Virus record (IMG/VR): IMGVR_UViG_3300036802_000312 | Origin: an uncultured virus (IMG/VR IMGVR_UViG_3300036802_000312) | Taxonomy: Duplodnaviria > Heunggongvirae > Uroviricota > Caudoviricetes | DNA: 64,000 nt | Direction: 5' to 3' (one strand) | In this document: piece by piece, positions 1-48,517 of the stretch | Numbering within the stretch: the stretch's first letter is position 1 | Layout of the letters: each line of letters opens with the position of its first letter | Translations under genes and position numbers: made by a program | The notes under the pieces: model-generated | Databases searched by the model: none | What the model saw: the letters and a program-made list of their open reading frames with translations, nothing else | What the model was told of the DNA's origin: nothing

Positions 1-306
1 ATGGAGGTGAAAGACAGTATGAATAACATAAGTGCAGCAAACGCAACGATGAATCATTTCAATATTCAGCCAGTGGGCAGATTTAGCCTACTTATTCAAA
101 CATGCCTTTTACCACAAGCTAATATTGAGTTTAGTAAACATGAGGATCGCAAATCTTATCCGTCAACAGAACAAGTGGCGATTTGGGGAGGGTTATATCC
201 GAAAGTACAAAGGTGTCTTGTAGAAAAAATACCGATATACTCGTTTATCTTGAAGTGGTGTACCCATTTTAGAGAGAAGCGTTATACAAGTAAATTTTCA
301 GTGTAG
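1..306 (+). CDS. hypothetical protein (possibly 5'-partial)
   Basis: ORF track; followed by an intrinsic terminator at 325-355. Confidence 0.35.
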   Translation: MEVKDSMNNISAANATMNHFNIQPVGRFSLLIQTCLLPQANIEFSKHEDRKSYPSTEQVAIWGGLYPKVQRCLVEKIPIYSFILKWCTHFREKRYTSKFSV

Positions 307-324
307 CTAATAGGCTACAAACAA

Positions 325-355
325 GACACCCATCGAAAAGATTGGGTGTTTTTTT
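325..355 (+). terminator. intrinsic terminator
   Basis: GACACCCATC-gaaaa-GATTGGGTGT hairpin followed by a T-run. Confidence 0.7.
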
Positions 356-373
356 ATTGAAATTTTAAAATAT

Positions 374-466
374 GGATAGGTACTCAAGTGGTTAAGAGAA
401 TCCCCTGCTAAGGGATTAGGCGATCTAAACAATCGTGCGAGGGTTCAAATCCCTCTCTATCCTCCA
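374..466 (+). tRNA. trnS: tRNA-Ser(GCT)
   Basis: loop ctGCTaa, long variable arm, CCA. Confidence 0.92.
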
Positions 467-471
467 TATAT

Positions 472-546
472 GGGCAAGTAGCCAAGAGGTGAAGGCTGTT
501 GACTGCAAATCTTCGAGCGGTGGTTCGATTCCACTCTTGCCCTCCA
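472..546 (+). tRNA. trnC: tRNA-Cys(GCA), weak anticodon stem
   Basis: gttga ctGCAaa tcttc; CCA. Confidence 0.85.
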
Positions 547-566
547 ATAAAAAAATGAAAGAATAT

Positions 567-643
567 GCGGTTATGATGGAATTGGCAGACATCCTTGCCT
601 AAGAAGCAAGGTTTTGAGGGTTCGAGTCCCTCTATCCGCACCA
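567..643 (+). tRNA. trnL: tRNA-Leu(AAG), short variable loop
   Basis: cttgc ctAAGaa gcaag; Leu-type D-arm GGAATTGGCAGAC; 5-nt variable region. Confidence 0.85.
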
Positions 644-649
644 TAATTA

Positions 650-724
650 AGGGATGTAGTTCAGTGGAAGAACACTTGTTTTGGGAACAAGATGTCGTAA
701 GTTCGATTCTTACCATTCCTACCA
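650..724 (+). tRNA. trnP: tRNA-Pro(TGG)
   Basis: cttgt ttTGGga acaag; CCA. Confidence 0.88.
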
Positions 725-735
725 AATTAAATTAT

Positions 736-809
736 AGAGGTATCGTTCAACGGTAGGACTGCGGCTTCCAACCCCGCCAATCAGGGTTCAACTCCTTGTG
801 CCTCTGCCA
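736..809 (+). tRNA. trnW: tRNA-Trp(CCA)
   Basis: gcggc ttCCAac cccgc; G73, CCA. Confidence 0.85.
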
Positions 810-816
810 ATTATAT

Positions 817-896
817 GCTCCCTTATTGCTCAGTCAGGTTAGAGCACACGTCTTATATGCGTGGGGTCGTTGGTTCAAATCCAACAGGGAGTACCA
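817..896 (+). tRNA. trnI: tRNA-Ile(TAT)
   Basis: cacgt ctTATat gcgtg; CCA. Confidence 0.85.
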
Positions 897-900
897 ATAT

Positions 901-974
901 AGGGGATTCGTTTAGTGGTAGGACATAACACTTTGACTGTTATTGCGTAGGTTCGATTCCTGCATCCCCCGCCA
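901..974 (+). tRNA. trnQ: tRNA-Gln(TTG)
   Basis: taaca ctTTGac tgtta; CCA. Confidence 0.9.
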
Positions 975-978
975 AAAT

Positions 979-1054
979 GGTTTTGTAGCTCAATCGGGAG
1001 AGCGTTGCACTGTCACTGCAAAGGTAGCGAGATCGAAACTCGTCAAGACCGCCA
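979..1054 (+). tRNA. trnD: tRNA-Asp(GTC)
   Basis: ttgca ctGTCac tgcaa; T-loop ATCGAAA. Confidence 0.88.
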
Positions 1055-1060
1055 TTATAT

Positions 1061-1136
1061 GGATCTTTAGCTCAGTTGGAAGAGCGTTTGGCTCATAACC
1101 GAATGGTCACAGGTTCGATTCCTGTAGGATCCACCA
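1061..1136 (+). tRNA. tRNA(CAT), Ile2-like or elongator Met
   Basis: tttgg ctCATaa ccgaa; body resembles Bacillus tRNA-Ile2 (GGAYCTTTAGCTCAG...). Confidence 0.85.
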
Positions 1137-1145
1137 AAAAATTAT

Positions 1146-1221
1146 TGACGTGTAGCTCAGTGGTAGTAGCAACCGCCTGTTAAGCGGAGAGTCGTAGGTT
1201 CGATCCCTACCATGTCAGCCA
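1146..1221 (+). tRNA. trnN: tRNA-Asn(GTT)
   Basis: loop ctGTTaa; CCA. Confidence 0.9.
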
Positions 1222-1224
1222 TAT

Positions 1225-1311
1225 GGGAAAGCGGCGAAGTTGGAGAGTCGTGGCAGACTGTAAATCTGCTGTCGAAAGGCTGAGTGAGTTCGAATCTCAC
1301 CTTTCCCACCA
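1225..1311 (+). tRNA. trnY: tRNA-Tyr(GTA)
   Basis: gcaga ctGTAaa tctgc; long variable arm. Confidence 0.92.
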
Positions 1312-1345
1312 AAATAAAATTATACAAAGAAAGGAAGTGTTCTTC

Positions 1346-1390
1346 ATGCGAGAGAGTGATGAGGTAGAGGAAGAAATGATGAAAACATAA
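1346..1390 (+). CDS. Glu-rich mini-ORF MRESDEVEEEMMKT preceding tRNA-Glu
   Basis: SD AAAGGAAGTG; ATG..TAA; 5/14 Glu. Confidence 0.65.
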   Translation: MRESDEVEEEMMKT

Positions 1391-1393
1391 TGT

Positions 1394-1470
1394 GGCTCCG
1401 TTGACAAACTGGTTAAGTCACCAGACTTTCAATCTGGTCATTGCGGGTTCGAATCCCGTCGGAGTCACCA
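1394..1470 (+). tRNA. trnE: tRNA-Glu(TTC)
   Basis: ccaga ctTTCaa tctgg; CCA. Confidence 0.92.
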
Positions 1471-1520
1471 CAAAAGTAAAATAGATTGAATATTCTGAAT
1501 ATAAAAGGAGAGTGAAGTGC

Positions 1521-1568
1521 GTGAAAAGTGACAAATCAGACAAATCAATAAAATATATGTCTTCGTAG
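1521..1568 (+). CDS. Lys-rich mini-ORF MKSDKSDKSIKYMSS overlapping tRNA-Lys
   Basis: SD AAAGGAGAGTGA; GTG start; stop TAG = tRNA nt 8-10. Confidence 0.7.
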   Translation: MKSDKSDKSIKYMSS

Positions 1569-1634
1569 CTCAATTGGTAGAGCAAGGAACTTTTAATTCC
1601 GAGGTTGCAGGTTCAAGTCCTGTCGGAGACACCA
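1559..1634 (+). tRNA. trnK: tRNA-Lys(TTT)
   Basis: aggaa ctTTTaa ttccg; CCA. Confidence 0.92.
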
Positions 1635-1640
1635 ATGTAT

Positions 1641-1714
1641 GCGGATGTAATTTAAAGGTAGAATGCTTGTTTTCCAAACAAGTCATGAGGGTTCGATTCC
1701 CTTCGTCCGCTCCA
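1641..1714 (+). tRNA. trnG: tRNA-Gly(TCC)
   Basis: cttgt ttTCCaa acaag; U73, CCA. Confidence 0.9.
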
Positions 1715-1721
1715 AAAATAT

Positions 1722-1790
1722 CGCTGTGACAGGTGTGCGTTAGGCTTCATAAGCCCGATTGCGAGGGTTCAAGCCCCTCCACTGCAACCA
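1722..1790 (+). tRNA. D-arm-reduced tRNA-like RNA with CAT anticodon
   Basis: acceptor, anticodon (ttCATaa) and T arms plus ACCA present; D-arm replaced by ACAGGTGTGCGT. Confidence 0.6.
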
Positions 1791-1793
1791 TTT

Positions 1794-1869
1794 CGGCTCG
1801 TAGCTCAGTTGGTAGAGCTTCGGTGTGAAGTACCGAGAGTCGGGGGTTCAAATCCCTCCGAGCCGACCA
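1794..1869 (+). tRNA. trnF: tRNA-Phe(GAA), atypical loop
   Basis: tcggt gtGAAgt accga; CCA. Confidence 0.88.
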
Positions 1870-1906
1870 TAATTTCTACAGTTAAAATGAAAGAGGTGAA
1901 ATAAAC

Positions 1907-1966
1907 ATGCGACAGAGAGTTCGACAGCGTTACATAGTGAACTATATTAATACTATTCTCCTATAG
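1907..1966 (+). CDS. Gln/Arg mini-ORF MRQRVRQRYIVNYINTILL overlapping tRNA-Gln
   Basis: SD AAAGAGGTGA; stop TAG = tRNA nt 8-10. Confidence 0.6.
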   Translation: MRQRVRQRYIVNYINTILL

Positions 1967-2030
1967 CATATTGGTAATGCACCTGGCTTTGAACCAGGGG
2001 AACACAGTTCGATTCTGTGTGGGAGTGCCA
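1957..2030 (+). tRNA. trnQ: tRNA-Gln(TTG)
   Basis: cctgg ctTTGaa ccagg; CCA. Confidence 0.9.
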
Positions 2031-2043
2031 AATTAACATTTAT

Positions 2044-2119
2044 GCGTCTTTAACTCAGTGGACAGAGTGCTTGGTTTCGACCCAAGTTGTCGGGAGTTCA
2101 AATCTCTCAAGGCGCTCCA
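2044..2119 (+). tRNA. trnR: tRNA-Arg(TCG)
   Basis: cttgg ttTCGac ccaag; CCA. Confidence 0.88.
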
Positions 2120-2123
2120 TTAT

Positions 2124-2201
2124 CTGGATTTAGCTCAGCTTGGTTAGAGTACGTGCCTTGGACGCACGGGGTCGTTGGTTCAAATCCAACAGTCCAGACC
2201 A
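2124..2201 (+). tRNA. trnP: tRNA-Pro(TGG)
   Basis: cgtgc ctTGGac gcacg. Confidence 0.9.
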
Positions 2202-2206
2202 AATAT

Positions 2207-2283
2207 GCTGAATTAGCTCAGTAGGTTAGAGTATCCCTCTGATAAGGGGAAGGTCGATGGTTCGAGTCCATCATTCAGTACCA
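2207..2283 (+). tRNA. trnI: tRNA-Ile(GAT)
   Basis: tccct ctGATaa gggga. Confidence 0.9.
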
Positions 2284-2288
2284 AATAT

Positions 2289-2366
2289 TGCGGAGTGGTA
2301 GCAGTCTGGTAGCTCGCTTGGCTCATAACCAAGAGGTCAAGGGTTCAAATCCCTTCTCCGCAACCA
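2289..2366 (+). tRNA. trnM: tRNA-fMet-like (CAT)
   Basis: initiator-type D-arm (GCAGTCTGGTAGCTCG), ctCATaa, ends CCGCAACCA. Confidence 0.85.
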
Positions 2367-2367
2367 T

Positions 2368-2443
2368 GGGATCGTAGCTCAATTGGTAGAGCAGCGGCTT
2401 TGCAAGTCGAAGGTTGGAGGTTCAAGTCCTCTCGGTTCCACCA
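2368..2443 (+). tRNA. trnA: tRNA-Ala(TGC)
   Basis: loop ttTGCaa; G3:U70. Confidence 0.9.
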
Positions 2444-2452
2444 AAATAATAT

Positions 2453-2528
2453 TGGCGTGTAGAACAACTGGTAGTTCAGCTCACTGTTAATGAGAAGGTT
2501 GTAGGTTCGAATCCTATCATGCCAGCCA
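2453..2528 (+). tRNA. trnN: tRNA-Asn(GTT)
   Basis: ctca ctGTTaa tgag. Confidence 0.88.
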
Positions 2529-2532
2529 ATAT

Positions 2533-2608
2533 GGTTCTGTAGCTCAATCGGGAGAGTGCTTGCTTGTCACGCAAGAGGTAGCGAGATCAAAACTCGTCAG
2601 AACCGCCA
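2533..2608 (+). tRNA. trnD: tRNA-Asp(GTC)
   Basis: cttgc ttGTCac gcaag. Confidence 0.88.
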
Positions 2609-2617
2609 AAAATATAT

Positions 2618-2704
2618 GGGGAAACGGCGAAGTAGGAGAGTCGTGGCAGACTGTAAATCTGTTGCCTTTGTGCTCAGTGAGTTCGAATCTCACTTTCCCC
2701 ACCA
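2618..2704 (+). tRNA. trnY: tRNA-Tyr(GTA)
   Basis: gcaga ctGTAaa tctgt; long variable arm. Confidence 0.92.
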
Positions 2705-2733
2705 ACTCAAATACTGAAAGGATGGTGATCTCT

Positions 2734-2778
2734 ATGACAGAGGTTGGCGAGGAAAGATTTAAAGAAACATTTGATTAA
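2734..2778 (+). CDS. Glu-rich mini-ORF MTEVGEERFKETFD preceding tRNA-Glu
   Basis: SD AAAGGATGGTGA; 4/14 Glu; same length and spacing as 1346-1390. Confidence 0.65.
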   Translation: MTEVGEERFKETFD

Positions 2779-2781
2779 CAT

Positions 2782-2856
2782 GGCGTGGTGGTGAAATTGG
2801 AATAACACACCGCACTTTCACTGCGGGATTTGCGAGTTCGAGCCTCGTCCACGTCA
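2782..2856 (+). tRNA. trnE: tRNA-Glu(TTC), no encoded CCA
   Basis: ccgca ctTTCac tgcgg. Confidence 0.85.
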
Positions 2857-2865
2857 TAACATTTT

Positions 2866-2941
2866 GCTCGGTTAGCTCAAATGGTAGAGCAACGGTATCG
2901 TAAACCGTAGGCTATGGGTTCAAGTCCCTTATCGAGCACCA
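2866..2941 (+). tRNA. trnT: tRNA-Thr(CGT)
   Basis: acggt atCGTaa accgt. Confidence 0.88.
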
Positions 2942-2971
2942 TTATTTAATTAGAGAAGAGAGGGTGATGAA

Positions 2972-3019
2972 ATGAAGAGTGACAAAGGAAATAAATCAGA
3001 TAAACGTAAGTCCTCGTAG
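2972..3019 (+). CDS. Lys-rich mini-ORF MKSDKGNKSDKRKSS overlapping tRNA-Lys
   Basis: SD GAGAGGGTGA; stop TAG = tRNA nt 8-10. Confidence 0.7.
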   Translation: MKSDKGNKSDKRKSS

Positions 3020-3085
3020 CTCAATTGGTAGAGCAAGCGGCTTTTAACCGAGAGGTTACAGGTTCAAATCCTGTCGGGGACACCA
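3010..3085 (+). tRNA. trnK: tRNA-Lys(TTT)
   Basis: agcgg ctTTTaa ccgag; CCA. Confidence 0.88.
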
Positions 3086-3091
3086 ATTTAT

Positions 3092-3165
3092 GCGGATGTA
3101 GTTTAAAGGTAGAATGCCAGCTTGCCAAGTTGGTTGTGAGGGTTCGATTCCCTTCATCCGCTCCA
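3092..3165 (+). tRNA. trnG: tRNA-Gly(GCC)
   Basis: ccagc ttGCCaa gttgg. Confidence 0.9.
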
Positions 3166-3204
3166 AAAATACTTAAATTAACGAATGAAAGAGGTGAGGG
3201 TAAG

Positions 3205-3255
3205 ATGCCACAGCAAGGAGAACAGAAAATCTCAGTTTTAATTGATCTCCCGTAG
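3205..3255 (+). CDS. Gln-rich mini-ORF MPQQGEQKISVLIDLP overlapping tRNA-Gln
   Basis: SD AAAGAGGTGA; stop TAG = tRNA nt 8-10. Confidence 0.65.
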   Translation: MPQQGEQKISVLIDLP

Positions 3256-3319
3256 CATATTGGTAATGCACCTGGCTTTGAACCAGGTAAACACAGTTCA
3301 ATTCTGTGCGGGAGTGCCA
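3246..3319 (+). tRNA. trnQ: tRNA-Gln(TTG)
   Basis: cctgg ctTTGaa ccagg. Confidence 0.9.
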
Positions 3320-3338
3320 CAAAAATAGTTTTAATTAT

Positions 3339-3415
3339 CTGGACTTAGCTCAGTTTGGTAGAGTACATGCTTTGGACGCATGGGGTCGTTGGTTCAAATC
3401 CAGCAGTTCAGACCA
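3339..3415 (+). tRNA. trnP: tRNA-Pro(TGG)
   Basis: catgc ttTGGac gcatg. Confidence 0.9.
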
Positions 3416-3420
3416 TACAT

Positions 3421-3499
3421 GCCTGTATGGTGGAATGGCAGACACGATTGGTTTAGAGCCAGTTGCTTCGGCGTGGGGGTTCAAGTCCCTCTACAGGCA
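3421..3499 (+). tRNA. trnL: tRNA-Leu(TAG), no encoded CCA
   Basis: attgg ttTAGag ccagt; variable arm. Confidence 0.88.
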
Positions 3500-3509
3500 C
3501 TTAAAATAT

Positions 3510-3586
3510 GCTGTTATAGCTCAGTTGGTTAGAGTACCCGTCTGATAAGCGGGAGGTCAGTGGTTCAAATCCATTTAACAGCACCA
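3510..3586 (+). tRNA. trnI: tRNA-Ile(GAT)
   Basis: cccgt ctGATaa gcggg. Confidence 0.9.
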
Positions 3587-3592
3587 AAGTAT

Positions 3593-3668
3593 TGACATGT
3601 AGCTCAGCGGTAGTAGCATCCGACTGTTAATCGGAGAGTCGTAGGTTCGATCCCTACCATGTCAGCCA
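3593..3668 (+). tRNA. trnN: tRNA-Asn(GTT)
   Basis: tccga ctGTTaa tcgga. Confidence 0.9.
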
Positions 3669-3672
3669 ATAT

Positions 3673-3746
3673 GGGGAAATAGTTTAATGGTAGAACAGTG
3701 GCTTCCAAACCCGCTGGTGTGGGTTCGATTCCTGCTTTCCCTGCCA
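3673..3746 (+). tRNA. trnW: tRNA-Trp(CCA)
   Basis: gtggc ttCCAaa cccgc. Confidence 0.85.
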
Positions 3747-3757
3747 AAATGAAATAT

Positions 3758-3833
3758 GGTGTCGGTAGCTCAATGGTTAGAGTGCTGGACTGTGAATCCA
3801 GCGATGCGAGTTCGATCCTCGTCCTTCACCCCA
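3758..3833 (+). tRNA. trnH: tRNA-His(GTG)
   Basis: ctgga ctGTGaa tccag; G-1, C73. Confidence 0.88.
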
Positions 3834-3838
3834 AATAT

Positions 3839-3914
3839 GGTTCTGTAGCTCAATCGGGAGAGTGCTTGCTTGTCACGCAAGAGGTAGCGAGATCGAAACT
3901 CGTCAGAACCGCCA
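3839..3914 (+). tRNA. trnD: tRNA-Asp(GTC)
   Basis: near-identical to 2533-2608. Confidence 0.88.
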
Positions 3915-3922
3915 AAAGATAT

Positions 3923-3995
3923 GGGTTCGTAGCTCAATTGGAAGAGCAACTGCTTTGCAAGTAGAAGGTCGGAGGTTCGAATCCTTCTAAACCAG
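3923..3995 (+). pseudogene. tRNA-Ala(TGC) with degenerate 3' acceptor strand
   Basis: D, anticodon and T arms intact; 3' strand (taaacca) does not pair with GGGTTCG. Confidence 0.6.
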
Positions 3996-4030
3996 TCAAT
4001 TGAAATCAGAGAGGATGATTCAAATGAAAT

Positions 4031-4387
4031 ATGGGATTTGTCGTTGAAGGATTAAATGACGAGAAACATCTAAAAGAAGTGATGCCTGATGCCCATTGTG
4101 TTGTTACAAACGGAACGAGAATGAATGGACGAGTGCAAATGGATATTAATCATGCATTATCTCTCTGTGATGAAGTTTATTTACTCACTGATCCCGATGA
4201 AGCAGGAGATACTTTAGCGAAAATGGTTTGGCGGTTGTATCCTTCTTTACCAAGAGTTTTGTTGGATCGATATGAATGCACAACTTATCGGAATTTAAAA
4301 CTGAAGGTGGGTGTGGAACATTGCGAATTGGAGTACTTGAGACATGTTTTGTTTGAATATTTGAACAATCTTGATTTGTCTCTGTAG
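4031..4387 (+). CDS. Toprim-domain protein, RNase M5/YusF-like
   Basis: VVEG..D, TNG, LLTDPDEAG (DxD) and GVEH motifs of the RNase M5 family. Confidence 0.8.
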   Translation: MGFVVEGLNDEKHLKEVMPDAHCVVTNGTRMNGRVQMDINHALSLCDEVYLLTDPDEAGDTLAKMVWRLYPSLPRVLLDRYECTTYRNLKLKVGVEHCELEYLRHVLFEYLNNLDLSL

Positions 4388-4636
4388 TTTATCGGGGTAA
4401 CAGTATTTTTAGATCTTGAAGGTTCAAAAGCCTTCTACGTCATTAATTTAAATAATGGCGTAACAAAAAAAAGAAGCTCCACCCCGCCAAGAGTTAAGCT
4501 GCTTCACGTTCTTCGTTCTTATTATACGCTTTTACAGATAGCGTTGCAATGTGGGGACAAATAAGAAATTTAGCGGTTTAAGAAGATTGGAATTAGTTCT
4601 TATTTTTAGATGATCTTAAAACATGAAAGTTTATAT

Positions 4637-4718
4637 GCGGGTATGGTGGAATGGCAGACACGGTGGATTTAAGACCCACTGCGAGAGCGTACAGGTTCAA
4701 GTCCTGTTACCCGTACCA
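4637..4718 (+). tRNA. trnL: tRNA-Leu(TAA)
   Basis: gtgga ttTAAga cccac. Confidence 0.88.
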
Positions 4719-4723
4719 AATAT

Positions 4724-4805
4724 GCGGATGTGGTGGAATGGCAGACACGGTAGATTCAAAACCTACTGCTTTGGCATGAGAGTTCAAGTCTCTCCATCTG
4801 CACCA
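4724..4805 (+). tRNA. trnL: tRNA-Leu(CAA)
   Basis: gtaga ttCAAaa cctac. Confidence 0.88.
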
Positions 4806-4813
4806 AAATATAT

Positions 4814-4889
4814 GCTTGTTTAGTTCAGTCGGTAGAATAGCTGTTTTGTAATCAGAAGGTCGGGGGTTCGATTCCCTCAACAAGCACCA
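4814..4889 (+). tRNA. trnT: tRNA-Thr(TGT)
   Basis: loop ttTGTaa; CCA. Confidence 0.85.
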
Positions 4890-4895
4890 TACTAT

Positions 4896-4968
4896 GCTGG
4901 TTTAGTTCAGTTGGGAGAATGTCTGTTTTGTAATCAGAAGGTCGGGGGTTCGAGTCCCTCAACCAGCA
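4896..4968 (+). tRNA. trnT: tRNA-Thr(TGT), no encoded CCA
   Basis: tandem paralog of the previous gene. Confidence 0.85.
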
Positions 4969-4999
4969 TCATCAAACAAAATGAAAGGAAGTGATTAGT

Positions 5000-5047
5000 G
5001 TGAAGAGTGACAAAGATGGCAAGTCCAATAAACATTTGGGTGTGTAG
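5000..5047 (+). CDS. Lys-rich mini-ORF MKSDKDGKSNKHLGV overlapping tRNA-Lys
   Basis: SD AAAGGAAGTGA; GTG start; stop TAG = tRNA nt 8-10. Confidence 0.7.
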   Translation: MKSDKDGKSNKHLGV

Positions 5048-5113
5048 CTCAATCGGTAGAGCAACGGTCTTTTAAACCGTAGGTAGTGGGATCGTAACCC
5101 ACCGCACCCACCA
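5038..5113 (+). tRNA. trnK: tRNA-Lys(TTT)
   Basis: acggt ctTTTaa accgt; T-loop ATCGTAA. Confidence 0.88.
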
Positions 5114-5125
5114 TATATATAATTT

Positions 5126-5202
5126 GCTCGCTTAGCTCAGTAGAGGAGAGCGTTCGGTTTACACCCGAAAGGTCATGGGTTCGAGTCCCTTAGCGAGTAC
5201 CA
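5126..5202 (+). tRNA. trnV: tRNA-Val(TAC)
   Basis: ttcgg ttTACac ccgaa. Confidence 0.9.
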
Positions 5203-5205
5203 TAT

Positions 5206-5280
5206 GCGGATATGGTATAAAGGTAGTGCCGTAGCCTTCCAAGCTATAGAAGACGGGTTCGAGTCCCGCTATCCGCTCCA
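5206..5280 (+). tRNA. trnG: tRNA-Gly(TCC)
   Basis: gtagc ctTCCaa gctat. Confidence 0.9.
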
Positions 5281-5300
5281 ATAATATTAACACTCACTAT

Positions 5301-5431
5301 GCGGAAATCGTCTAAAGGTAGGACACCCCCCTCCAGGGGCGTGAATGTGTGGTTCGCTACCACCAGGATGAGTAGCCCTCATCTGCACGATAGTCAATGA
5401 GATCGAGGTTCGATTCCTTGTTTCCGCTCCA
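5301..5431 (+). ncRNA. 131-nt tRNA-Gly-like RNA with a large inserted multi-hairpin domain
   Basis: GCGGAAA/TTTCCGC-TCCA acceptor, D and T arms, about 60-nt structured insert. Confidence 0.6.
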
Positions 5432-5436
5432 ATTAT

Positions 5437-5511
5437 TGTCTGAAAGCTTTGATGGTGAAGCTGATCTCAGCGCAAGAGATGAATGTAGTTCAATTCTACA
5501 TCAGACAGCCA
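5437..5511 (+). tRNA. tRNA-like RNA, undetermined identity (loop AGCGCAA, no U33)
   Basis: perfect TGTCTGA/TCAGACA-GCCA acceptor, D and T arms. Confidence 0.6.
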
Positions 5512-5514
5512 TAT

Positions 5515-5590
5515 ATCCTCGTAGCTCAGTCGGAAGAGCATGGAGCTTCTACCTCCAGTGTCAGGGGTTCGAGTCCCTTCGAGGATGCCA
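5515..5590 (+). tRNA. trnR: tRNA-Arg(TCT)
   Basis: tggag ctTCTac ctcca. Confidence 0.9.
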
Positions 5591-5594
5591 ATAC

Positions 5595-5663
5595 AGCGGC
5601 ATAAGGTGTGCGTTTTCTCTCATAAGGAAGATTGTGTAGGTTCAAGTCCTACTGTCGCTACTA
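5595..5663 (+). tRNA. second D-arm-reduced CAT tRNA-like RNA
   Basis: AGCGGCA/TGTCGCT acceptor, TAAGGTGTGCGT connector, ctCATaa. Confidence 0.55.
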
Positions 5664-5696
5664 AATCAAATTTAATGTTTAAGGTGGGTGAGATTG

Positions 5697-6137
5697 ATGA
5701 CTACATTCAAAGTTTACACCGATGCTTCCTCTCGCTATAAAGCGATTGTAGAAGATACAGGAAGTGAAAGGGGGCTGCGAAAAGTCTATCCTTCATCCAT
5801 CGGAGCAGTTATAAAAAATGGTGAACAAGTGATTGGATCAATATCTGAAAAAATAGGTTTTTCAGATTCAAACTATGCTGAATTTTTAGCGATGTACACC
5901 GCTTGTCGATACTTGATTGATCATAAAATTACAAAGGTTGATTTTTATGCTGATTGTCTAAACCTTGTACTGATGATTAATCAAAAAATTATCAGTGGAA
6001 TTCCAGAACTACGGAATCTTTCTTATGCAATCCTTGATTGCTTAAATCAGATCGATAATTATACCGTCACTTGGATCCCACGAAACAGCAACAAAGAAGC
6101 GCATAACATGGCTTCTCAAGCTTTCAAAGTCAGCTAA
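5697..6137 (+). CDS. RNase HI-like protein
   Basis: VYTDAS, SNYAEFLA, YADC, WIPRNSNKEAHNMA motifs. Confidence 0.85.
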   Translation: MTTFKVYTDASSRYKAIVEDTGSERGLRKVYPSSIGAVIKNGEQVIGSISEKIGFSDSNYAEFLAMYTACRYLIDHKITKVDFYADCLNLVLMINQKIISGIPELRNLSYAILDCLNQIDNYTVTWIPRNSNKEAHNMASQAFKVS

Positions 6138-6153
6138 TAACTGACCTTGATTT

Positions 6154-6229
6154 CGGCTCGTAGCTCAGTTGGTAGAGCTTCGGTGTGAAGTACCGAGAGT
6201 CGGGGGTTCAAATCCCTCCGAACCGACCA
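6154..6229 (+). tRNA. trnF: tRNA-Phe(GAA)
   Basis: near-identical to 1794-1869. Confidence 0.88.
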
Positions 6230-6235
6230 TTATAT

Positions 6236-6311
6236 ACTTCATTAGCTCAGAGGACAGAGTGCTTGGCTACGAACCAAGAAGTCGGGAGTTCAAATCTCTC
6301 ATGGAGTGCCA
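6236..6311 (+). tRNA. trnR: tRNA-Arg(ACG)
   Basis: cttgg ctACGaa ccaag. Confidence 0.9.
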
Positions 6312-6318
6312 CAAATAT

Positions 6319-6395
6319 CTGGACTTAGCTCAGTTTGGTAGAGTACATGCCTTGGAAGCATGGGGTCGTTGGTTCAAGTCCAACAGTTCAGACCA
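6319..6395 (+). tRNA. trnP: tRNA-Pro(TGG)
   Basis: catgc ctTGGaa gcatg. Confidence 0.9.
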
Positions 6396-6400
6396 TATAT

Positions 6401-6477
6401 GCTGTTATAGCTCAGTTGGTTAGAGTGCCTGTCTGATAAGCAGGAGGTCAGTGGTTCAAATCCATTTAACAGCACCA
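6401..6477 (+). tRNA. trnI: tRNA-Ile(GAT)
   Basis: cctgt ctGATaa gcagg. Confidence 0.9.
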
Positions 6478-6482
6478 AATAT

Positions 6483-6559
6483 GCTGAATTAGCTTAGTTA
6501 GGTAGAGCATCCCCTTGGTATGGGGAAGGTCGATGGTTCGAATCCATTATTCAGCTCCA
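6483..6559 (+). tRNA. trnT: tRNA-Thr(GGT)
   Basis: tcccc ttGGTat gggga. Confidence 0.88.
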
Positions 6560-6564
6560 ATTAT

Positions 6565-6640
6565 GGGGTCATAGCTCAATTGGTAGAGCGACTGCTTTGC
6601 AAGCGGAAGGTTAAGGGTTCAAGCCCCTTTGATTCCACCA
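6565..6640 (+). tRNA. trnA: tRNA-Ala(TGC)
   Basis: loop ttTGCaa; G3:U70. Confidence 0.9.
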
Positions 6641-6667
6641 TTAAAGAATATGAATGAGGTGTAAGTT

Positions 6668-7552
6668 ATGAACGTGCTGTTTTGTTCTAATCCGCTCAAT
6701 TCCAAACAAGTAGATGAAGAGTATGAGCAAGAATATAATATAGCTCGATTTATGGGAATTAATCCGGCTTTAATTGATATCGAATCATTGTTGGAGGGGG
6801 ATGCAAAATCCGCTATACGATCTGTTCGTAAAAATGAAAATAGTTCACTTGCGATTTATCGTGGATGGATGTTAACGCCACATCATTATCGAGAACTATA
6901 TGAAGCTTTAAAAACCAAAAACATAGCATTAATTAATACACCTGAACAATATATTCATTGTCATTACCTTCCTAACAGCTTTGAACATATTCAATTAAAA
7001 AGTATGGAGACAAAGTGGATGAAGGTAACCGAGATGGATTTACTCCTGAAAGCAATGCTAAAGAGCTTCGGCAATAGTGCCTTGATCGTAAAAGATTACG
7101 TAAAGTCAAGAAAACATGATTGGCATGAAGCTTGTTTTATTCCTACTGCGAGTGATACTGAGCAAGCTGAAAAGGTCATTCGTCGATTTATCGAGTTGCA
7201 AGCAGAAATGCTTGCCGAGGGAATTGTACTTCGTGAATTTGTGGAACTTGAAATCATGGGCTATCACCCTTTAAGTAACATGCCACTTGCAAATGAAAGA
7301 AGATTATTCTTCTTAAATCATCAACTCATAGCTAATTTTGAATATTGGGATGAAATGCTTTACAACAATGACCACTTCCCATTAGAGGAATTTGTTACAT
7401 TAGCCCGAAAAGTGAAAAGTAATTTCTTCACAATGGATGTAGCAAAGAAGAGTAATGGAGAATGGATAATTATGGAGCTTGGTGACGGTCAAGTGTCTGG
7501 ATTGCCCATAAAAGCAGATTTGAAATCATTTTATGAGCAAATTTGTTTATGA
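6668..7552 (+). CDS. ATP-grasp domain protein (R2K/DUF4343-like)
   Basis: YRGWML, IVKDYVKSRKH, ERRLFF, FTMDVA, IMELGDGQVSG; SD GAGGTG. Confidence 0.8.
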   Translation: MNVLFCSNPLNSKQVDEEYEQEYNIARFMGINPALIDIESLLEGDAKSAIRSVRKNENSSLAIYRGWMLTPHHYRELYEALKTKNIALINTPEQYIHCHYLPNSFEHIQLKSMETKWMKVTEMDLLLKAMLKSFGNSALIVKDYVKSRKHDWHEACFIPTASDTEQAEKVIRRFIELQAEMLAEGIVLREFVELEIMGYHPLSNMPLANERRLFFLNHQLIANFEYWDEMLYNNDHFPLEEFVTLARKVKSNFFTMDVAKKSNGEWIIMELGDGQVSGLPIKADLKSFYEQICL

Positions 7553-7675
7553 AAATATTAAGAACTGTTAAGTAATGAAGAAATCGTTCTTGAAGCGATT
7601 TTAAGATCGGTTTCTTCACTTAACCAGTAGCATTTATGGGGTAGTAGCTCACCTCTCGATTTCACTAAAAAATAT

Positions 7676-7775
7676 GTGGAGTATACAACTGGTGTTGTCA
7701 GAGTCGCACTCTGAGTGGGGTTTGATTCCCTTTTATCATGATGACTGGTAGGTTCAATTCCTGCATTCCGCACAA
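7676..7775 (+). ncRNA. tRNA-like RNA with an extra T-loop-like arm
   Basis: GTGGAGT/ATTCCGC acceptor, ACAAC/GTTGT D-arm, CAGAGT/ACTCTG arm, GGGtttgattCCC extra arm, GTAGG ttcaatt CCTGC T-arm. Confidence 0.5.
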
Positions 7776-7783
7776 TAAACTAT

Positions 7784-7871
7784 GGAGTCATGGCTGAATG
7801 GCTAAAGCACCGTCCTGCTAAGACGGCGAAGGGGAAACCCTGTACAGGTTCGAATCCTGTTGACTCCGCCA
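7784..7871 (+). tRNA. trnS: tRNA-Ser(GCT)
   Basis: ccgtc ctGCTaa gacgg; long arm. Confidence 0.92.
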
Positions 7872-7874
7872 TAT

Positions 7875-7962
7875 GGATCGTTGGCAGAGAGGCTTAATGC
7901 ATCATCTTGGAAAGGTGACGAGTGTAACAGCTCCGTAGGTTCAAATCCTACACGATCCGCCA
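7875..7962 (+). tRNA. trnS: tRNA-Ser(GGA)
   Basis: tcatc ttGGAaa ggtga. Confidence 0.92.
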
Positions 7963-8022
7963 AAAACATTTTAGTAATTGTGTACAGTTGCGTCTAAGTG
8001 TAGACGTTTCACAAAAAAATAT

Positions 8023-8100
8023 CTGGATTTAGCTTAGCTTGGTTAGAGTACGTGCCTTGGAAGCACGGAGTCGTTGGTTCGAATCCAACAGTCCAGACCA
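8023..8100 (+). tRNA. trnP: tRNA-Pro(TGG)
   Basis: cgtgc ctTGGaa gcacg. Confidence 0.9.
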
Positions 8101-8104
8101 ATAA

Positions 8105-8194
8105 GGAGAGTTGGCAGAGTCAGGCTTAATGTACCAGTTTCGAAAACTGGAGGGTGTAACAGCTCCAAGGGTTCAAATCCCTTACTCTCCTCCA
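8105..8194 (+). tRNA. trnS: tRNA-Ser(CGA)
   Basis: ccagt ttCGAaa actgg. Confidence 0.92.
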
Positions 8195-8219
8195 CAATAG
8201 ATTTTGTATAATTATATAT

Positions 8220-8306
8220 GGAAGGCTACCGAAATGGTTATAACGGCGTTGCTTTGAAAGCTTCTGTGATTTAAAAGTCCTGGGGGTTCGAATCCCCCGC
8301 CTTCCT
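8220..8306 (+). tRNA. trnS: tRNA-Ser(TGA), no encoded CCA
   Basis: gttgc ttTGAaa gcttc (weak stem). Confidence 0.75.
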
Positions 8307-8313
8307 TTTAATA

Positions 8314-8418
8314 TGAGTTTCGGTCTTTATCTAACGTAATGTTAGGGCTTGTTTACTCCTAAAACCTCCTCCTTAGAATCGACCTCCATCCACTATTTAC
8401 GATAATCCGAATGACTCA
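8314..8418 (+). ncRNA. candidate C-rich (anti-SD) sRNA
   Basis: terminal stem TGAGT-TTCGG/CCGAA-tg-ACTCA enclosing ACTCCT, ACCTCCTCCTT, GACCTCC. Confidence 0.35.
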
Positions 8419-9196
8419 AACGTTTGAATATAAAAAAACTAAAAGCAGATCATGGGATTTGCTTTTTTATTGTGAAATTATTTATTTTAGTTTTGCATCC
8501 ATATACATAGAGAAAACAAAAAAAGCCAGCAATATCTCTGACTTTTAGGTGATACTCGTTATTTGATCCAATAACGTATCCAAGTATTATAACTTGTGTC
8601 CACGTTAGGTTTAAGGTTGAACGTTTCTGTCTCTGTAGGACAAGTGTCATGACTATACTCTAAATGTTGATAAGATTTTAGTTCATTATCGGGTATGTTT
8701 TCAAGTGAAAAGCCTTTGAGTCTTGTAGATAATGACATGATAAGACCTCCTTTAAATAGATTAGAAAGTAATTAAATGCTTTCTATATATAATAGATGGA
8801 AGTCTTAAATCTATAATAGAAATCTAAAAATAAGAAACAAGTCAACTTCTATAGTAAGCAACCGACAATTAATGACCTCTTTTAAGACTTGTAATTTTCT
8901 TAGAACAAAAAAACCAACTGTATAGTTGGCTTTTTTCCCTTATACTTATATAATATACTGAATCGATTCGGCAGTCTAAGTTTATAATTAATACATCTAC
9001 GAAAAAATATAAGTTAATGGAAGAATTATCTGTAGGTTAAATTGTAACCTTGTTAGTTATTAGCGGGATTAATTAGTTGAGAAAATTAATGAGAGAATAT
9101 ACTTTTGAATAAATCCAATTTTACATATAATCTAATAGTTTTAAATTAAATGAACAGTCGATTGTATTGATCATCTTATGTAGGCGGGTATATGGG

Positions 9197-9604
9197 ATGG
9201 AAGATTTACAATGGGAGATTTATAAGAAAGAACTAATTGATAATTTATATCAGGTTGGAATAAGCAAAAGTCTGGGGTATTTACCTATCTTGACGATTAC
9301 AAGTGAAGTGTACTGTAATTTATCAATTCAAGAGGTGCTGGATTATGCTGTAATGCATCAGATTAAATCCTTGGTATTACCGCAACCAGAATGTAATATC
9401 GGATCTGGAGCTGTTTATTTTTATAATGAGGACATGTTGATGTCTATATTGCAAAAAAATAAAGAATATTTGCAAAGTGCTGGCATACCACATGAAGACT
9501 GTTTAATGTATATACGTTACATTTCCAATCGACATGTGAGTCAAGAAAAATATCATGAAGCATATCAAGTCGTAGCTCTAACATTCAATTTATATACGAG
9601 ATAA
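9197..9604 (+). CDS. hypothetical protein
   Basis: ORF followed by terminator; distantly similar in style to 25828-26382. Confidence 0.65.
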   Translation: MEDLQWEIYKKELIDNLYQVGISKSLGYLPILTITSEVYCNLSIQEVLDYAVMHQIKSLVLPQPECNIGSGAVYFYNEDMLMSILQKNKEYLQSAGIPHEDCLMYIRYISNRHVSQEKYHEAYQVVALTFNLYTR

Positions 9605-12837: not shown

Positions 12838-13110
12838 TGACAATATCAATATTGTATTGAACAGAAATTTGATCCTTGTTCCTGGTTTTTAATTTCGAAT
12901 TATAGTCTTTATTAAATACAACAAGTAAGAGTGGAGAGATTTCAAGTTATCTTTTACTTGTTGTAAAATCAATACTTAATATAGTAAAAGACATTAATCG
13001 ACTGTATATACGAAATAGAATACATGCATGTGATATTTTGGTATACTTGAACCCAAATGAAACTTTATTCAGCAATAAGGGAAAGGCAGGAGATCAATAT
13101 AGGAAAGGGC

Positions 13111-48434: not shown

Positions 48435-48517
48435 ATAAGATCTCTCCCTTTTACAAAATATTCGAAAATAAATTCCCAAGAATTAATCCGATTAACGCCC
48501 CAAATTATAAAGGATAA

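Follow-up and report, generated by a model that had tools for sequence, protein, structure and literature searches.

The tRNA array in this 64,000-nucleotide stretch of DNA, called here the window, contains short open reading frames (ORFs) which abut or overlap genes for tRNA-Lys(UUU), tRNA-Glu(UUC) and tRNA-Gln(UUG). Sequence comparisons support the view that these leaders are conserved coding elements, with sensor codons matched to the downstream tRNA. We give about an even chance to the reading that each leader acts as a translated feedback gate, in which the decoding speed of the cognate codons would decide on the maturation of the tRNA. The array that bears these leaders sits on a giant Paenibacillus-type plasmid, and the array of the Paenibacillus polymyxa plasmid pSC2 is its direct relative.

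The array comprises 57 tRNA genes in about 7.9 kb (Table 1), in line with the definition of long tRNA arrays given in PMC4758250 (at least 20 tRNA genes, at a density of at least 2 per kb). The hairpin and U run preceding its first tRNA are kept in L001, L002, L040 and L074. The whole array is probably turned on by an attenuator at its head that responds to general translation stress.

Table 1. Leaders, tRNA-Lys genes and array features in the window.
Feature	Position	Strand	Remarks
95-codon ORF, head of array	19..306	+	contains all 20 amino acids; predicted antiterminator arm at about 207-222
Terminator-like hairpin and U run	323..357	+	about 17 nt 5' of first tRNA
tRNA array	374..8306	+	57 tRNA genes, single strand; leaders lie within
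Glu leader 1	1346..1390	+	MRESDEVEEEMMKT; stop 6-4 nt 5' of tRNA-Glu(UUC) 1394-1470
Lys leader 1	1505..1568	+	SD 1505-1515; ORF 1521-1568, GTG start, MKSDKSDKSIKYMSS
tRNA-Lys(UUU) 1	1559..1634	+	pair 31-39 = A-U
Gln leader 1	1907..1966	+	MRQRVRQ...; stop = nt 8-10 of tRNA-Gln(UUG) 1957-2030
Glu leader 2	2734..2778	+	MTEVGEERFKETFD; stop 6-4 nt 5' of tRNA-Glu(UUC) 2782-2857
Lys leader 2	2960..3019	+	SD about 2960-2967; ORF 2972-3019, ATG start, MKSDKGNKSDKRKSS
tRNA-Lys(UUU) 2	3010..3085	+	pair 31-39 = G-C
Gln leader 2	3205..3255	+	MPQQGEQ...; stop = nt 8-10 of tRNA-Gln(UUG) 3246-3319
Lys leader 3	4984..5047	+	SD 4984-4994; ORF 5000-5047, GTG start, MKSDKDGKSNKHLGV
tRNA-Lys(UUU) 3	5038..5113	+	divergent body; pair 31-39 = U-A

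A preliminary description of this DNA had assigned a fixed geometry to the Lys leaders: 15 residues with lysine at positions 2, 5, 8 and 11, a start 38 nt before tRNA position +1, and termination on the TAG formed by tRNA nucleotides 8-10. Within the window this description is exact for all three, and the same stop is used by both Gln leaders. The body of the third tRNA-Lys is indeed diverged, with 45-47 of 73 bases in common with the other two (26-27 of 38 for the leaders). The duplexes with the anti-SD have energies of -13.9, -10.4 and -11.5 kcal/mol for the ORFs starting at 1521, 2972 and 5000, and leader plus tRNA form a cassette of less than 150 nt. Taken alone, the lysine content is not striking in such A-rich DNA, as shown by per-leader shuffles (P 0.01-0.23). 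The three tRNA-Lys copies also differ at pair 31-39.

The specificity of the leaders becomes apparent across seven related Bacillales arrays, where they lie upstream of 18 of 29 LysUUU, GluUUC or GlnUUG tRNAs versus 1 of 180 others (Fisher p ~1e-17, a value inflated by shared ancestry). They precede all nine LysUUU genes and not the single LysCUU gene. The automatic test found none at 4 of 11 Glu and 7 of 9 Gln tRNAs, which counts against the gate, and a leader with a weak SD was found manually at one of these seven Gln genes. Codon content follows the tRNA: K/E/Q counts over codons 2-11 are 34/0/0 in Lys leaders, 5/29/1 in Glu leaders and 2/1/7 in Gln leaders. The 20 Bacillales leaders, two of which were added manually, contain no in-frame stop, versus 14 and 32 stops in the +1 and +2 frames. 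In the comparison of lysine with other codons that had been suggested at the outset, pairwise counts among seven leaders, which are not independent, show lysine-site codons as identical in 52 pairs, synonymous in 26 and non-synonymous in 6, and the bias is reversed at other variable positions (10, 14 and 60, respectively). The three-codon periodicity of lysine also persists, in 23 of 27 gaps between lysines in nine Bacillales leaders. Serine stands two residues before lysine at 18 of 27 Bacillales sites and aspartate one residue before at 14 of 27; this conservation exceeds the needs of lysine sensing, which speaks against the gate as a full account. The nearest called upstream tRNA of the nine Lys leaders is Glu, Thr, Asn, Tyr or Leu, so that the leader travels with the downstream tRNA; control of the upstream tRNA was rejected on the same ground. 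Sequences within the leader sets are related, and counts thus overstate independence.

Such leaders also occur in numerous unrelated phages: one of the form M-x-S-D-K is found 5' of tRNA-Lys(UUU) in 46 of 58 distinct phage cassettes. The search pattern fixed the S-D-K codons and left the start, the frame and the second lysine free; the scan took in 46 of 64 collection parts and returned 119 loci, of which 41 were dropped as having no tRNA-Lys at the match, and merging of duplicates gave the 58 cassettes. The 46 have an ATG setting S-D-K at codons 3-5, against an ATG background of 0.032 per position, and several of the 12 cassettes without this start still have K-rich leaders. With a looser pattern devoid of the anticodon (120 loci), tRNA-Lys(UUU) accounted for 17 of 19 tRNA matches. 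Among the carriers, a leader is present at tRNA-Lys in 44 of 46 cases, at tRNA-Glu in 1 of 9 and at tRNA-Gln in 0 of 29; this restriction to tRNA-Lys argues against the generality of the gate. Two styles of start signal are used, an SD in 17 of the 46 leaders and an SD-less A-rich version in 29, with an A at -13 in 28 of the latter. Lysine codons lie at -17 to -19 in 45 of 46 leaders, at -8 to -10 in 45 of 46, and at both places in 44. Codon 5 is AAG in 45 of 46, which, along with the conservation of serine and aspartate, leaves peptide- or codon-level effects unexplained. The closest cultured capsids for three carriers belong to proteobacterial and Flavobacterium phages, so the effector should be host-universal, like the ribosome and RNase P. 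No cultured phage matched with 80% coverage of a leader-plus-tRNA query.

The exact spacing, taken as fixed in the preliminary description, proves looser across the family. Starts lie 20-54 nt 5' of the tRNA overall. The 38-nt distance is found in six of nine Bacillales Lys leaders (39, 50 and 54 nt in the others) but in only 5 of 46 phage leaders, where 29 nt prevails (28 leaders), followed by 30 nt (8), 39 nt (2) and 20, 31 and 40 nt (one each). Likewise, the stop falls on U8-A9-G10 in five of nine Bacillales Lys leaders and 33 of 46 phage leaders (38 of 55 together); the other Bacillales Lys stops are at -5, -2, +13 and +13, those of all Bacillales leaders range from -6 to +20, and 13 phage leaders terminate away from nucleotides 8-10. 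Since 36 of the 57 window tRNAs carry TAG at nucleotides 8-10, a stop there is the default of the frame. A clade of eight otherwise intact leaders reads through to +28; seven of its tRNA bodies group with that of a +8 leader, six being identical to it, in a tRNA tree of 74 columns that resolves little. What holds throughout is an ORF that ends no more than 6 nt short of tRNA +1 or continues into the tRNA (20/20 Bacillales and 46/46 phage leaders), so that an elongating or terminating ribosome reaches the acceptor stem and the RNase P site. The proposed selection on spacing thus stands for a constrained distance to the tRNA, but not for precisely 38 nt or for the stop position. Judged from these sequences, the better-kept quantity is the distance of the last lysine codons to the tRNA, rather than the stop. 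Lysine codons at both about -17 and about -8 are found in five of nine Bacillales Lys leaders, and for Glu and Gln the sensor codons are spread over -12 to -46; this loose geometry weighs against the gate. All 20 Bacillales leaders have at least two cognate codons at -17 or farther upstream. The peptides are 9 to 22 residues long, with one of 37, and their C-termini are encoded by the acceptor stem.

The leaders share with attenuators a short ORF, a ribosome-binding signal and enriched cognate codons. Terminator-like sites were found at none of the seven window leaders, and internal transcription termination was rejected. Runs of at least four T in the 20 leaders fall in the Lys anticodon loop, at +80 or later, or at five upstream places without a demonstrated preceding hairpin. 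No antiterminator emerged from folding of the 20 leaders (z from -2.8 to +1.5, 100 shuffles each), and no helix between leader and tRNA common to the family was found. Natural phage leaders pair with the tRNA over 2.0-2.1 bp versus 5.6-6.5 bp for shuffled ones, with an acceptor probability of 0.86-0.89 versus 0.65-0.66; an alternative RNA fold of the leader was rejected from these folding and pairing results. There is no downstream coding gene with a sequestered ribosome-binding site, as in translational attenuators, the next gene being always a tRNA. No T-box or other Rfam cis-regulator was detected in window positions 1-9000, where all 56 gathering-level matches are RF00005 tRNA. A promoter reading of GTGACA was discarded: no sigma-70-like site is seen at the leaders and, in the 29-nt leaders, transcription would start within the tRNA. 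Decoding of the leader in cis by the tethered tRNA was set aside by reasoning alone, the linker being too short.

A ribosome unwinds RNA about 11-13 nt ahead of its P-site codon, and its protection extends about 12 nt beyond the A-site codon. With such dimensions, a ribosome held at the -17 Lys codon would leave the tRNA and about 5 leader bases uncovered, and no codon beyond the one at -8 could be read without unwinding of the acceptor stem. In the proposed gate, rapid decoding would carry ribosomes into the acceptor stem, whose melting would hinder maturation. Run-through would repeatedly unfold the 5' acceptor strand and the D-arm, which could block RNase P and open the 3' end to decay. When the cognate tRNA is short, ribosomes would stall or drop off upstream, leaving the tRNA free for RNase P; scarcity of a tRNA would thus raise its own maturation. 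Hungry early Lys codons, after an acidic peptide of 4-7 residues, would favour pausing and peptidyl-tRNA drop-off, and hungry A-site codons early in ORFs are described as promoting drop-off (PMC10192219, PMC2490762). The likely purpose would be the release of spare Lys, Glu or Gln tRNA when that of the host is cut by anticodon nucleases, under-modified or depleted; tRNA-Lys(UUU) is a target of PrrC and AriB (PMC12409363, PMC11464382). Against the gate, none of the 106 ORFs of the 120-kb record was found to encode an anticodon nuclease, and a brief passage of the ribosome may repress only weakly; against its proposed sign, a ribosome paused on the Lys codon at -8 would lie over the RNase P site.

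The same gate could work with the opposite sign: a ribosome on the -8 (or -17) Lys codon would block RNase P, slow decoding would hold the precursor and run-through would release the tRNA. This would avoid adding uncharged tRNA in amino-acid starvation, the two phage lysine positions are equally kept, and a -8 lysine would set the ribosome leading edge on the -1/+1 bond, by its usual geometry. We nevertheless regard it as unlikely: more tRNA-Lys benefits phages when tRNA-Lys is cut (PMC11464382), a stall at the Glu and Gln sensor codons would leave the tRNA free, and the head attenuator predicts induction when translation slows. It is improbable, too, that the S-x-K repeats form an arrest context for chloramphenicol-like peptidyl-transferase inhibitors, or one that responds to the loss of an elongation helper, with general ribosome trouble being sensed instead of tRNA-Lys supply. 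Ribosomes stall at T-D-K in the cat-86 leader and at A-D-K in that of cmlA, and the Bacillales sites often have the penultimate serine. A penultimate Ala, Ser or Thr favours chloramphenicol stalling (bioRxiv 10.1101/2021.06.17.448903), and the Anabaena tRNA array is induced by impaired translation (PMC8421152). Such a context would however not explain why the sensor codon becomes E before tRNA-Glu and Q before tRNA-Gln, and the drug rule suits neither the Y-D-K second unit of 16 of 46 phage leaders nor glycine, the commonest penultimate residue in Glu leaders.

A stalled or terminating ribosome might instead guide a Rae1-like endonuclease that cuts the precursor, helping or destroying the tRNA. 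In short ORFs, Rae1 cleaves 12 nt before a stop codon at which the ribosome has paused (PMC12407103); applied to the +8 stop of most Lys leaders, a cut at this distance would shorten the leader to about 5 nt, by geometric comparison. The probability is low, since with stops as scattered as those of the Bacillales leaders the cuts would fall in leader and tRNA alike, and Rae1 is described from Gram-positive bacteria, cyanobacteria and chloroplasts, which are not the likely phage hosts. In Bacillus, stalled ribosomes protect downstream RNA from RNase J1. A loaded ribosome or SD pairing could similarly keep exonuclease away from the 5' end of processing intermediates, in the ermC or stab-SD style, cognate codons prolonging the stay when the tRNA is scarce; the strong SDs of Bacillales leaders would fit. 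The universal run of the ORFs to or into the tRNA would then be unexplained, as would the SD-less leaders in phages whose hosts rely on other decay systems, which makes shielding a poor candidate. Least probable is that the peptides themselves are the product, or that the cassette is neutral and hitch-hikes when the tRNA is copied. The N-terminal M-x-S-D-K is common to different host groups and one pSC2 copy decays along with its tRNA, but the variable peptide lengths, the C-termini drawn from the acceptor stem and a codon content that tracks the downstream tRNA do not fit, and the synonymous bias and two start-signal styles speak against neutrality.

Leader peptides such as trpL, hisL, pheL, thrL and pheM-pheST control amino-acid operons by transcription attenuation. 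The present leaders resemble them in having a short, probably translated ORF with cognate codons, through which ribosome speed would read the supply of charged tRNA. In contrast, the internal leaders lack terminator, antiterminator and U run, the product controlled would be the sensed tRNA itself, and up to seven leaders occur within one operon. The S/T/A-D-K context resembles that of the cat-86 and cmlA stall sites; unlike in translational attenuators, there is no hairpin, nor a ribosome-binding site further on that could be unmasked. A parallel is offered by the polycysteine short ORFs of mycobacteria (bioRxiv 10.1101/834739), a stalled ribosome controlling the next gene without a terminator. 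In the Rae1 targets spyA (S1025) and bmrX of Bacillus subtilis (PMC12407103), as would be the case here, what becomes of a polycistronic RNA depends on where the ribosome stands and the distance to the stop matters, but the leaders have no MEKDQV-like motif, their stop is variable, and they occur in phages of hosts without reported Rae1. The array is supernumerary and mobile, like the Anabaena trn operon (PMC8421152), which is under repressor control (PMC10272220), and the pSC2 array (PMC4758250). Term searches in the main texts of PMC8421152 and PMC4758250, for an ORF or intergenic feature or for a small ORF, spacer or RNase P, gave no match. The phage tRNA-Lys that escapes PARIS/AriB (PMC11464382) is likewise a spare tRNA-Lys(UUU) with an altered anticodon stem, as in the third window copy (U-A at 31-39); leader regulation is not described there. 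The literature search found no paper on such tRNA-fused leaders.

Other searches delimit the distribution. Toprim and ATP-grasp queries against the genome and viral contigs gave no useful homologs, the strict MKSDK-K-K pattern gave 14 loci with tRNAs at none, and two further viral patterns nothing useful. An RNase H profile matched once in 401 + 401 genomes, with tRNAs absent within 20 kb, and the array-type Glu pattern had no match in 401 genomes. By an SD-based test or by eye, no K-rich leader was seen at 18 viral loci chosen by a tRNA-Lys pattern; leaders are also absent from the 33-tRNA BTB_502p array, from five host-type or Vibrio plasmid clusters and upstream of the Phosso tRNA-Lys. The SDK-tRNA pattern gave 6 matches, versus 8 with the reversed control, when applied to 301 genomes of the order around G111; one of the six is a chromosomal-type tRNA-Lys with M-S-D-K and without an SD. 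No RNA dataset with the array was among the matches listed by the sequencing-run search. A relative in run X2 has a comparable Glu-Thr-Lys stretch; indels are called close to its leader, which is unreadable.

These leaders bear on the role of tRNA genes in phages and megaplasmids and on how the dose of these tRNAs is set. The cassette is found on a cultured plasmid family (pSC2), and may serve as a compact in vivo reporter of tRNA-Lys, -Glu or -Gln supply. We put a little below an even chance the broader proposal of an undescribed regulator class, common to Bacillales megaplasmids and to jumbo phages whose hosts belong to at least two other groups: in a hybrid mRNA-tRNA precursor, the tRNA would control its own maturation via the ribosome, without RNA switch or protein factor, would detect anticodon-nuclease attack or U34 under-modification, and would be retuned from Lys to Glu or Gln by single-base changes of the sensor codons. 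If true, tRNA 5' processing would join the outputs controllable by leader peptides, and mobile elements would measure the decoding of exactly those tRNAs that host defences cut.

The three 15-codon Lys leaders of the window (starts at 1521, 2972 and 5000), short upstream ORFs with K at codons 2, 5, 8 and 11, could all be confirmed. They have strong Shine-Dalgarno (SD) sites. As the preliminary description had stated, they start 38 nt 5' of their tRNA-Lys(UUU) and stop on the TAG at tRNA nt 8-10, where both Gln leaders also end. The two Glu leaders of the window end 6-4 nt before their tRNA. A TAG at nt 8-10 is present in 36 of the 57 tRNAs of the window, so that a stop there is the default for that frame; four K per ten A-rich codons is modest for a single leader (shuffle P 0.01-0.23). 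A second type of Glu leader survives as a remnant after tRNA-Cys (547-566), and L001, a P. thiaminolyticus plasmid array, and L002 (pSC2) retain at the equivalent place both the leader (MEPSEEK.., MEPGEEK..) and tRNA-Glu.

Seven Bacillales arrays were compared, picked by tRNA or RNase H similarity independently of the leader: the window, L001, L002, L040 (Rossellomorea), L074 (Brevibacillus) and the metagenome contigs L061 and L066. In these arrays, 18 of the 29 LysUUU, GluUUC and GlnUUG genes follow an SD-led ORF that begins 21-70 nt 5' of the tRNA, vs 1 of the 180 other tRNA genes; where the spacer has at least 30 nt, the counts are 18/21 vs 1/38. Such leaders are found at 9/9 Lys, 7/11 Glu and 2/9 Gln genes, and at 0/1 LysCUU. 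Together with two added by hand (a weak-SD Gln leader and a Glu leader in front of a tRNA that is degenerate), the 18 automatic cases form a set of 20, in which no in-frame stop occurs in codons 2-11 and the K/E/Q counts over these codons are 34/0/0 for Lys, 5/29/1 for Glu and 2/1/7 for Gln leaders. In a pairwise comparison of seven alignable Lys leaders, codon pairs at the K sites were identical in 52 cases, synonymous in 26 and non-synonymous in 6, and those at the other variable positions in 10, 14 and 60, respectively. The Lys M-K-S-D-K resembles the Glu M-R-E-S-D-E, the Gln M-R-Q and Glu M-R-E starts differ by one base, and the three classes look related, probably by common origin. In pSC2, a frameshifted Lys leader sits on a degenerate tRNA-Lys, a Glu leader precedes a tRNA-Glu that a deletion has joined to tRNA-Gly, and a tRNA-Tyr has an ATA anticodon.

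Beyond the window, the proposed geometry is not fixed. Among the Bacillales Lys leaders, starts lie at 38 nt in 6/9 and stops at +8 in 5/9 (positions relative to tRNA +1), and all 20 leaders start 35-54 nt upstream and stop between -6 and +20. Some selection on leader length in this lineage is favoured, since one L001 Lys copy without the first K codon still has 38 nt and 15 codons.

Phage genomes brought further Lys leaders. A first pattern (S-D-K-x-x-K then GTAGCT, anticodon and frame unspecified) gave 120 loci, with a tRNA at the match in 19, of which 17 were tRNA-Lys(UUU). When 46 of the 64 parts of the collection were scanned again, now for S-D-K codons lying 8-38 nt ahead of nt 8 of tRNA-Lys, there were 119 loci, 78 of them with this tRNA and 58 distinct. 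An ATG puts SDK at codons 3-5 in 46 of these 58, where the background frequency of ATG is 0.032 per position. S-D-K itself is imposed by the search pattern in the phage set, and its conservation is to be read from the Bacillales set only (8/9). The 46 starts have an SD in 17 cases and are SD-less and A-rich in 29, an initiation style known from Bacteroidota. The capsid proteins of three carriers have their closest counterparts in jumbo or T4-like phages of proteobacteria (67-76%) and, behind an uncultured phage, in Flavobacterium phages (41%); judged from capsid similarity only, the hosts would be proteobacterial or of Flavobacterium type. In these carriers, tRNAs other than tRNA-Lys are essentially without such leaders (Glu 1/9, Gln 0/29). 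Some phage Lys leaders of variant type, which do not fit the M-x-S-D-K frame, also end at tRNA nt 8-10 (loci L310, L318, L322, L284 and L240), for example MKESDKESNKRKDR and MKRKRNKEESDKRNVDR. At another locus (L351, 1538-1581, minus strand), a chromosomal-type tRNA-Lys follows M-S-D-K...K, with the stop at the tRNA start and no SD; this reading frame may be due to chance.

The phage start/stop pairs are 29/+8 (27 leaders), 30/+28 (8), 38/+8 (5) and 39/+22 (2), with 20/+8, 29/-2, 31/+81 and 40/+21 seen once each. With start distances so distributed, 38 nt is a single step on a ladder spaced at 9 nt. Eight leaders read through to +28; they are intact, differ from one another at codons 2 and 7, and in six cases precede a tRNA body identical to the one behind a 29/+8 leader. 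A stop at nt 8-10 is thus frequent but can be dispensed with. K is placed at -17 to -19 in 45/46 phage leaders, at -8 to -10 in 45/46 and at both in 44/46, the Bacillales Lys counts being 6/9, 5/9 and 5/9. The preliminary observation holds, and its interpretation is supported in part. The leaders form a real family that extends past the window, and its constant is better described as the distance from sensor codon to tRNA than as a start or stop position. Very probably the leaders are translated and under selection, each of them linked to its own tRNA.

The leaders are unstructured (folding z -2.8 to +1.5), and no terminator was found at them. Phage leaders pair with their own tRNA less than shuffled leaders do; the difference from shuffles is small for the Bacillales Lys leaders and absent for Glu and Gln. 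Seven polar terminators in one operon would require a simultaneous shortage of three tRNAs. From this reasoning and the absence of an RNA switch or terminator, it follows that the leader effect is most likely local and exerted after transcription. Sensors of this type are known. For the proposed output, the maturation of the very tRNA that is sensed without any RNA switch, no description was found, nor for a cognate-codon ORF abutting a tRNA gene, among the titles and abstract beginnings searched in mostly open literature. No matching regulator family was found in Rfam for window 1-9000.

The leader could act as a ribosome gate on pre-tRNA maturation through which shortage of the sensed tRNA raises its maturation, a reading whose chances look evenly balanced. 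General ribosome geometry is the basis for interpreting the -17 and -8 positions. With a ribosome paused at the -17 Lys codon, the cloverleaf and about five leader bases would stay free, and the -8 Lys codon would be the last to be decoded ahead of acceptor-stem unwinding. A passing ribosome would melt the 5' acceptor strand and the D-arm, no matter whether its stop lies at -6 or +28. The same gate with the opposite sign is unlikely. Shielding of the 5' end, a ribosome-guided cut of the precursor and a drug-type arrest context all seem quite improbable, and a peptide product or neutral reading slightly more so.

Lys, Glu and Gln tRNAs share a thiolated U34. Hungry codons early in an ORF are reported to favour pausing and drop-off (PMC10192219, PMC2490762). 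Pair 31-39, which we take to be the one altered in E. coli PARIS resistance, is A-U, G-C and U-A among the tRNA-Lys copies of the window. In E. coli, a U-A for A-U swap is described as conferring this resistance (PMC11464382), and PrrC and AriB are described as cutting tRNA-Lys(UUU) (PMC12409363, PMC11464382). The preferred reading remains the gate by which shortage raises maturation.

The 57 tRNA genes of the window (374-8306) are all on the plus strand. Toprim/RNase M5-like, RNase H-like and R2K ATP-grasp genes lie within the array; such proteins are found repeatedly inside related arrays and are candidates for array-specific RNA processing or repair. ARAGORN did not call two CAT-anticodon tRNA-like genes whose D-arm is reduced (the second reaches 36 bits against RF00005), and similar ones follow tRNA-Arg in L001, L040, L061 and L066. 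Another tRNA-like gene combines an acceptor stem of Gly type with a CTCCAGG loop and carries a large insertion; there ARAGORN calls only the adjacent odd tRNA-Ala(CGC) at 5437. A conserved, tRNA-like structured stretch, uncalled, lies between the ATP-grasp gene and tRNA-Ser. The record, of which the window forms the first 64 kb, has 119,962 bases and is classed as viral; no capsid, portal or terminase family turned up when 37 ORFs of the window and 58 of the remainder were scanned with Pfam. The nearest arrays reside on plasmids of Paenibacillus, 360 and 510 kb in size, whose RNase H-like proteins are 82-88% identical to that of the window (64% for a 628-kb Rossellomorea plasmid), and the window's protein is also recorded on a 483-kb contig. 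The record is probably part of a Paenibacillus-type megaplasmid. SpoIISA-type toxin, WGR-PARP, DndC-like PAPS reductase and Sir2 genes are found on the same element.

Coordinates of features in the window and in the compared arrays
Feature	Window	Other arrays
Array-head units	19-357	L001 2871-3515; L002 3920-4695; L040 7946-8655; L074 8244-8572
CAT-anticodon tRNA-like genes	about 1722-1790 and 5595-5660	
Truncated RNase M5-like Toprim	4031-4387	
Gly-type tRNA-like gene	about 5300-5432	L074 about 9475-9590
RNase H-like protein	5697-6137	
R2K ATP-grasp protein	6668-7552	
Conserved uncalled stretch	7620-7780	L061 about 4050-4165
SpoIISA-type toxin of toxin-antitoxin	13057-14067	
WGR-PARP	43005-44321	
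DndC-like PAPS reductase	45888-48479	
Sir2	62186-63079	
Degenerate tRNA-Lys with leader		L002 8521-8633
Fused tRNA-Glu with leader		L002 5724-5880

At its head, the array has an ORF of 95 codons (19-306) in which all 20 amino acids are represented; a terminator-like hairpin comes next, 17 nt short of the first tRNA. Across five arrays there are eight units of this build, in tandem in three of the arrays; their ORFs have 60-95 codons, all 20 amino acids and a common T-C/W-L motif, and are again followed by a terminator-like hairpin. An in-ORF complement to the 5' arm of the terminator beats all 30 shuffles in 4/8 units, that of the window included, and fails to do so in the other four. The array head looks like a classical attenuator. 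A tRNA array of Anabaena is described as being induced by slow translation via another route (PMC8421152). The build of the head suggests that the array is a back-up tRNA set, induced by slow translation.
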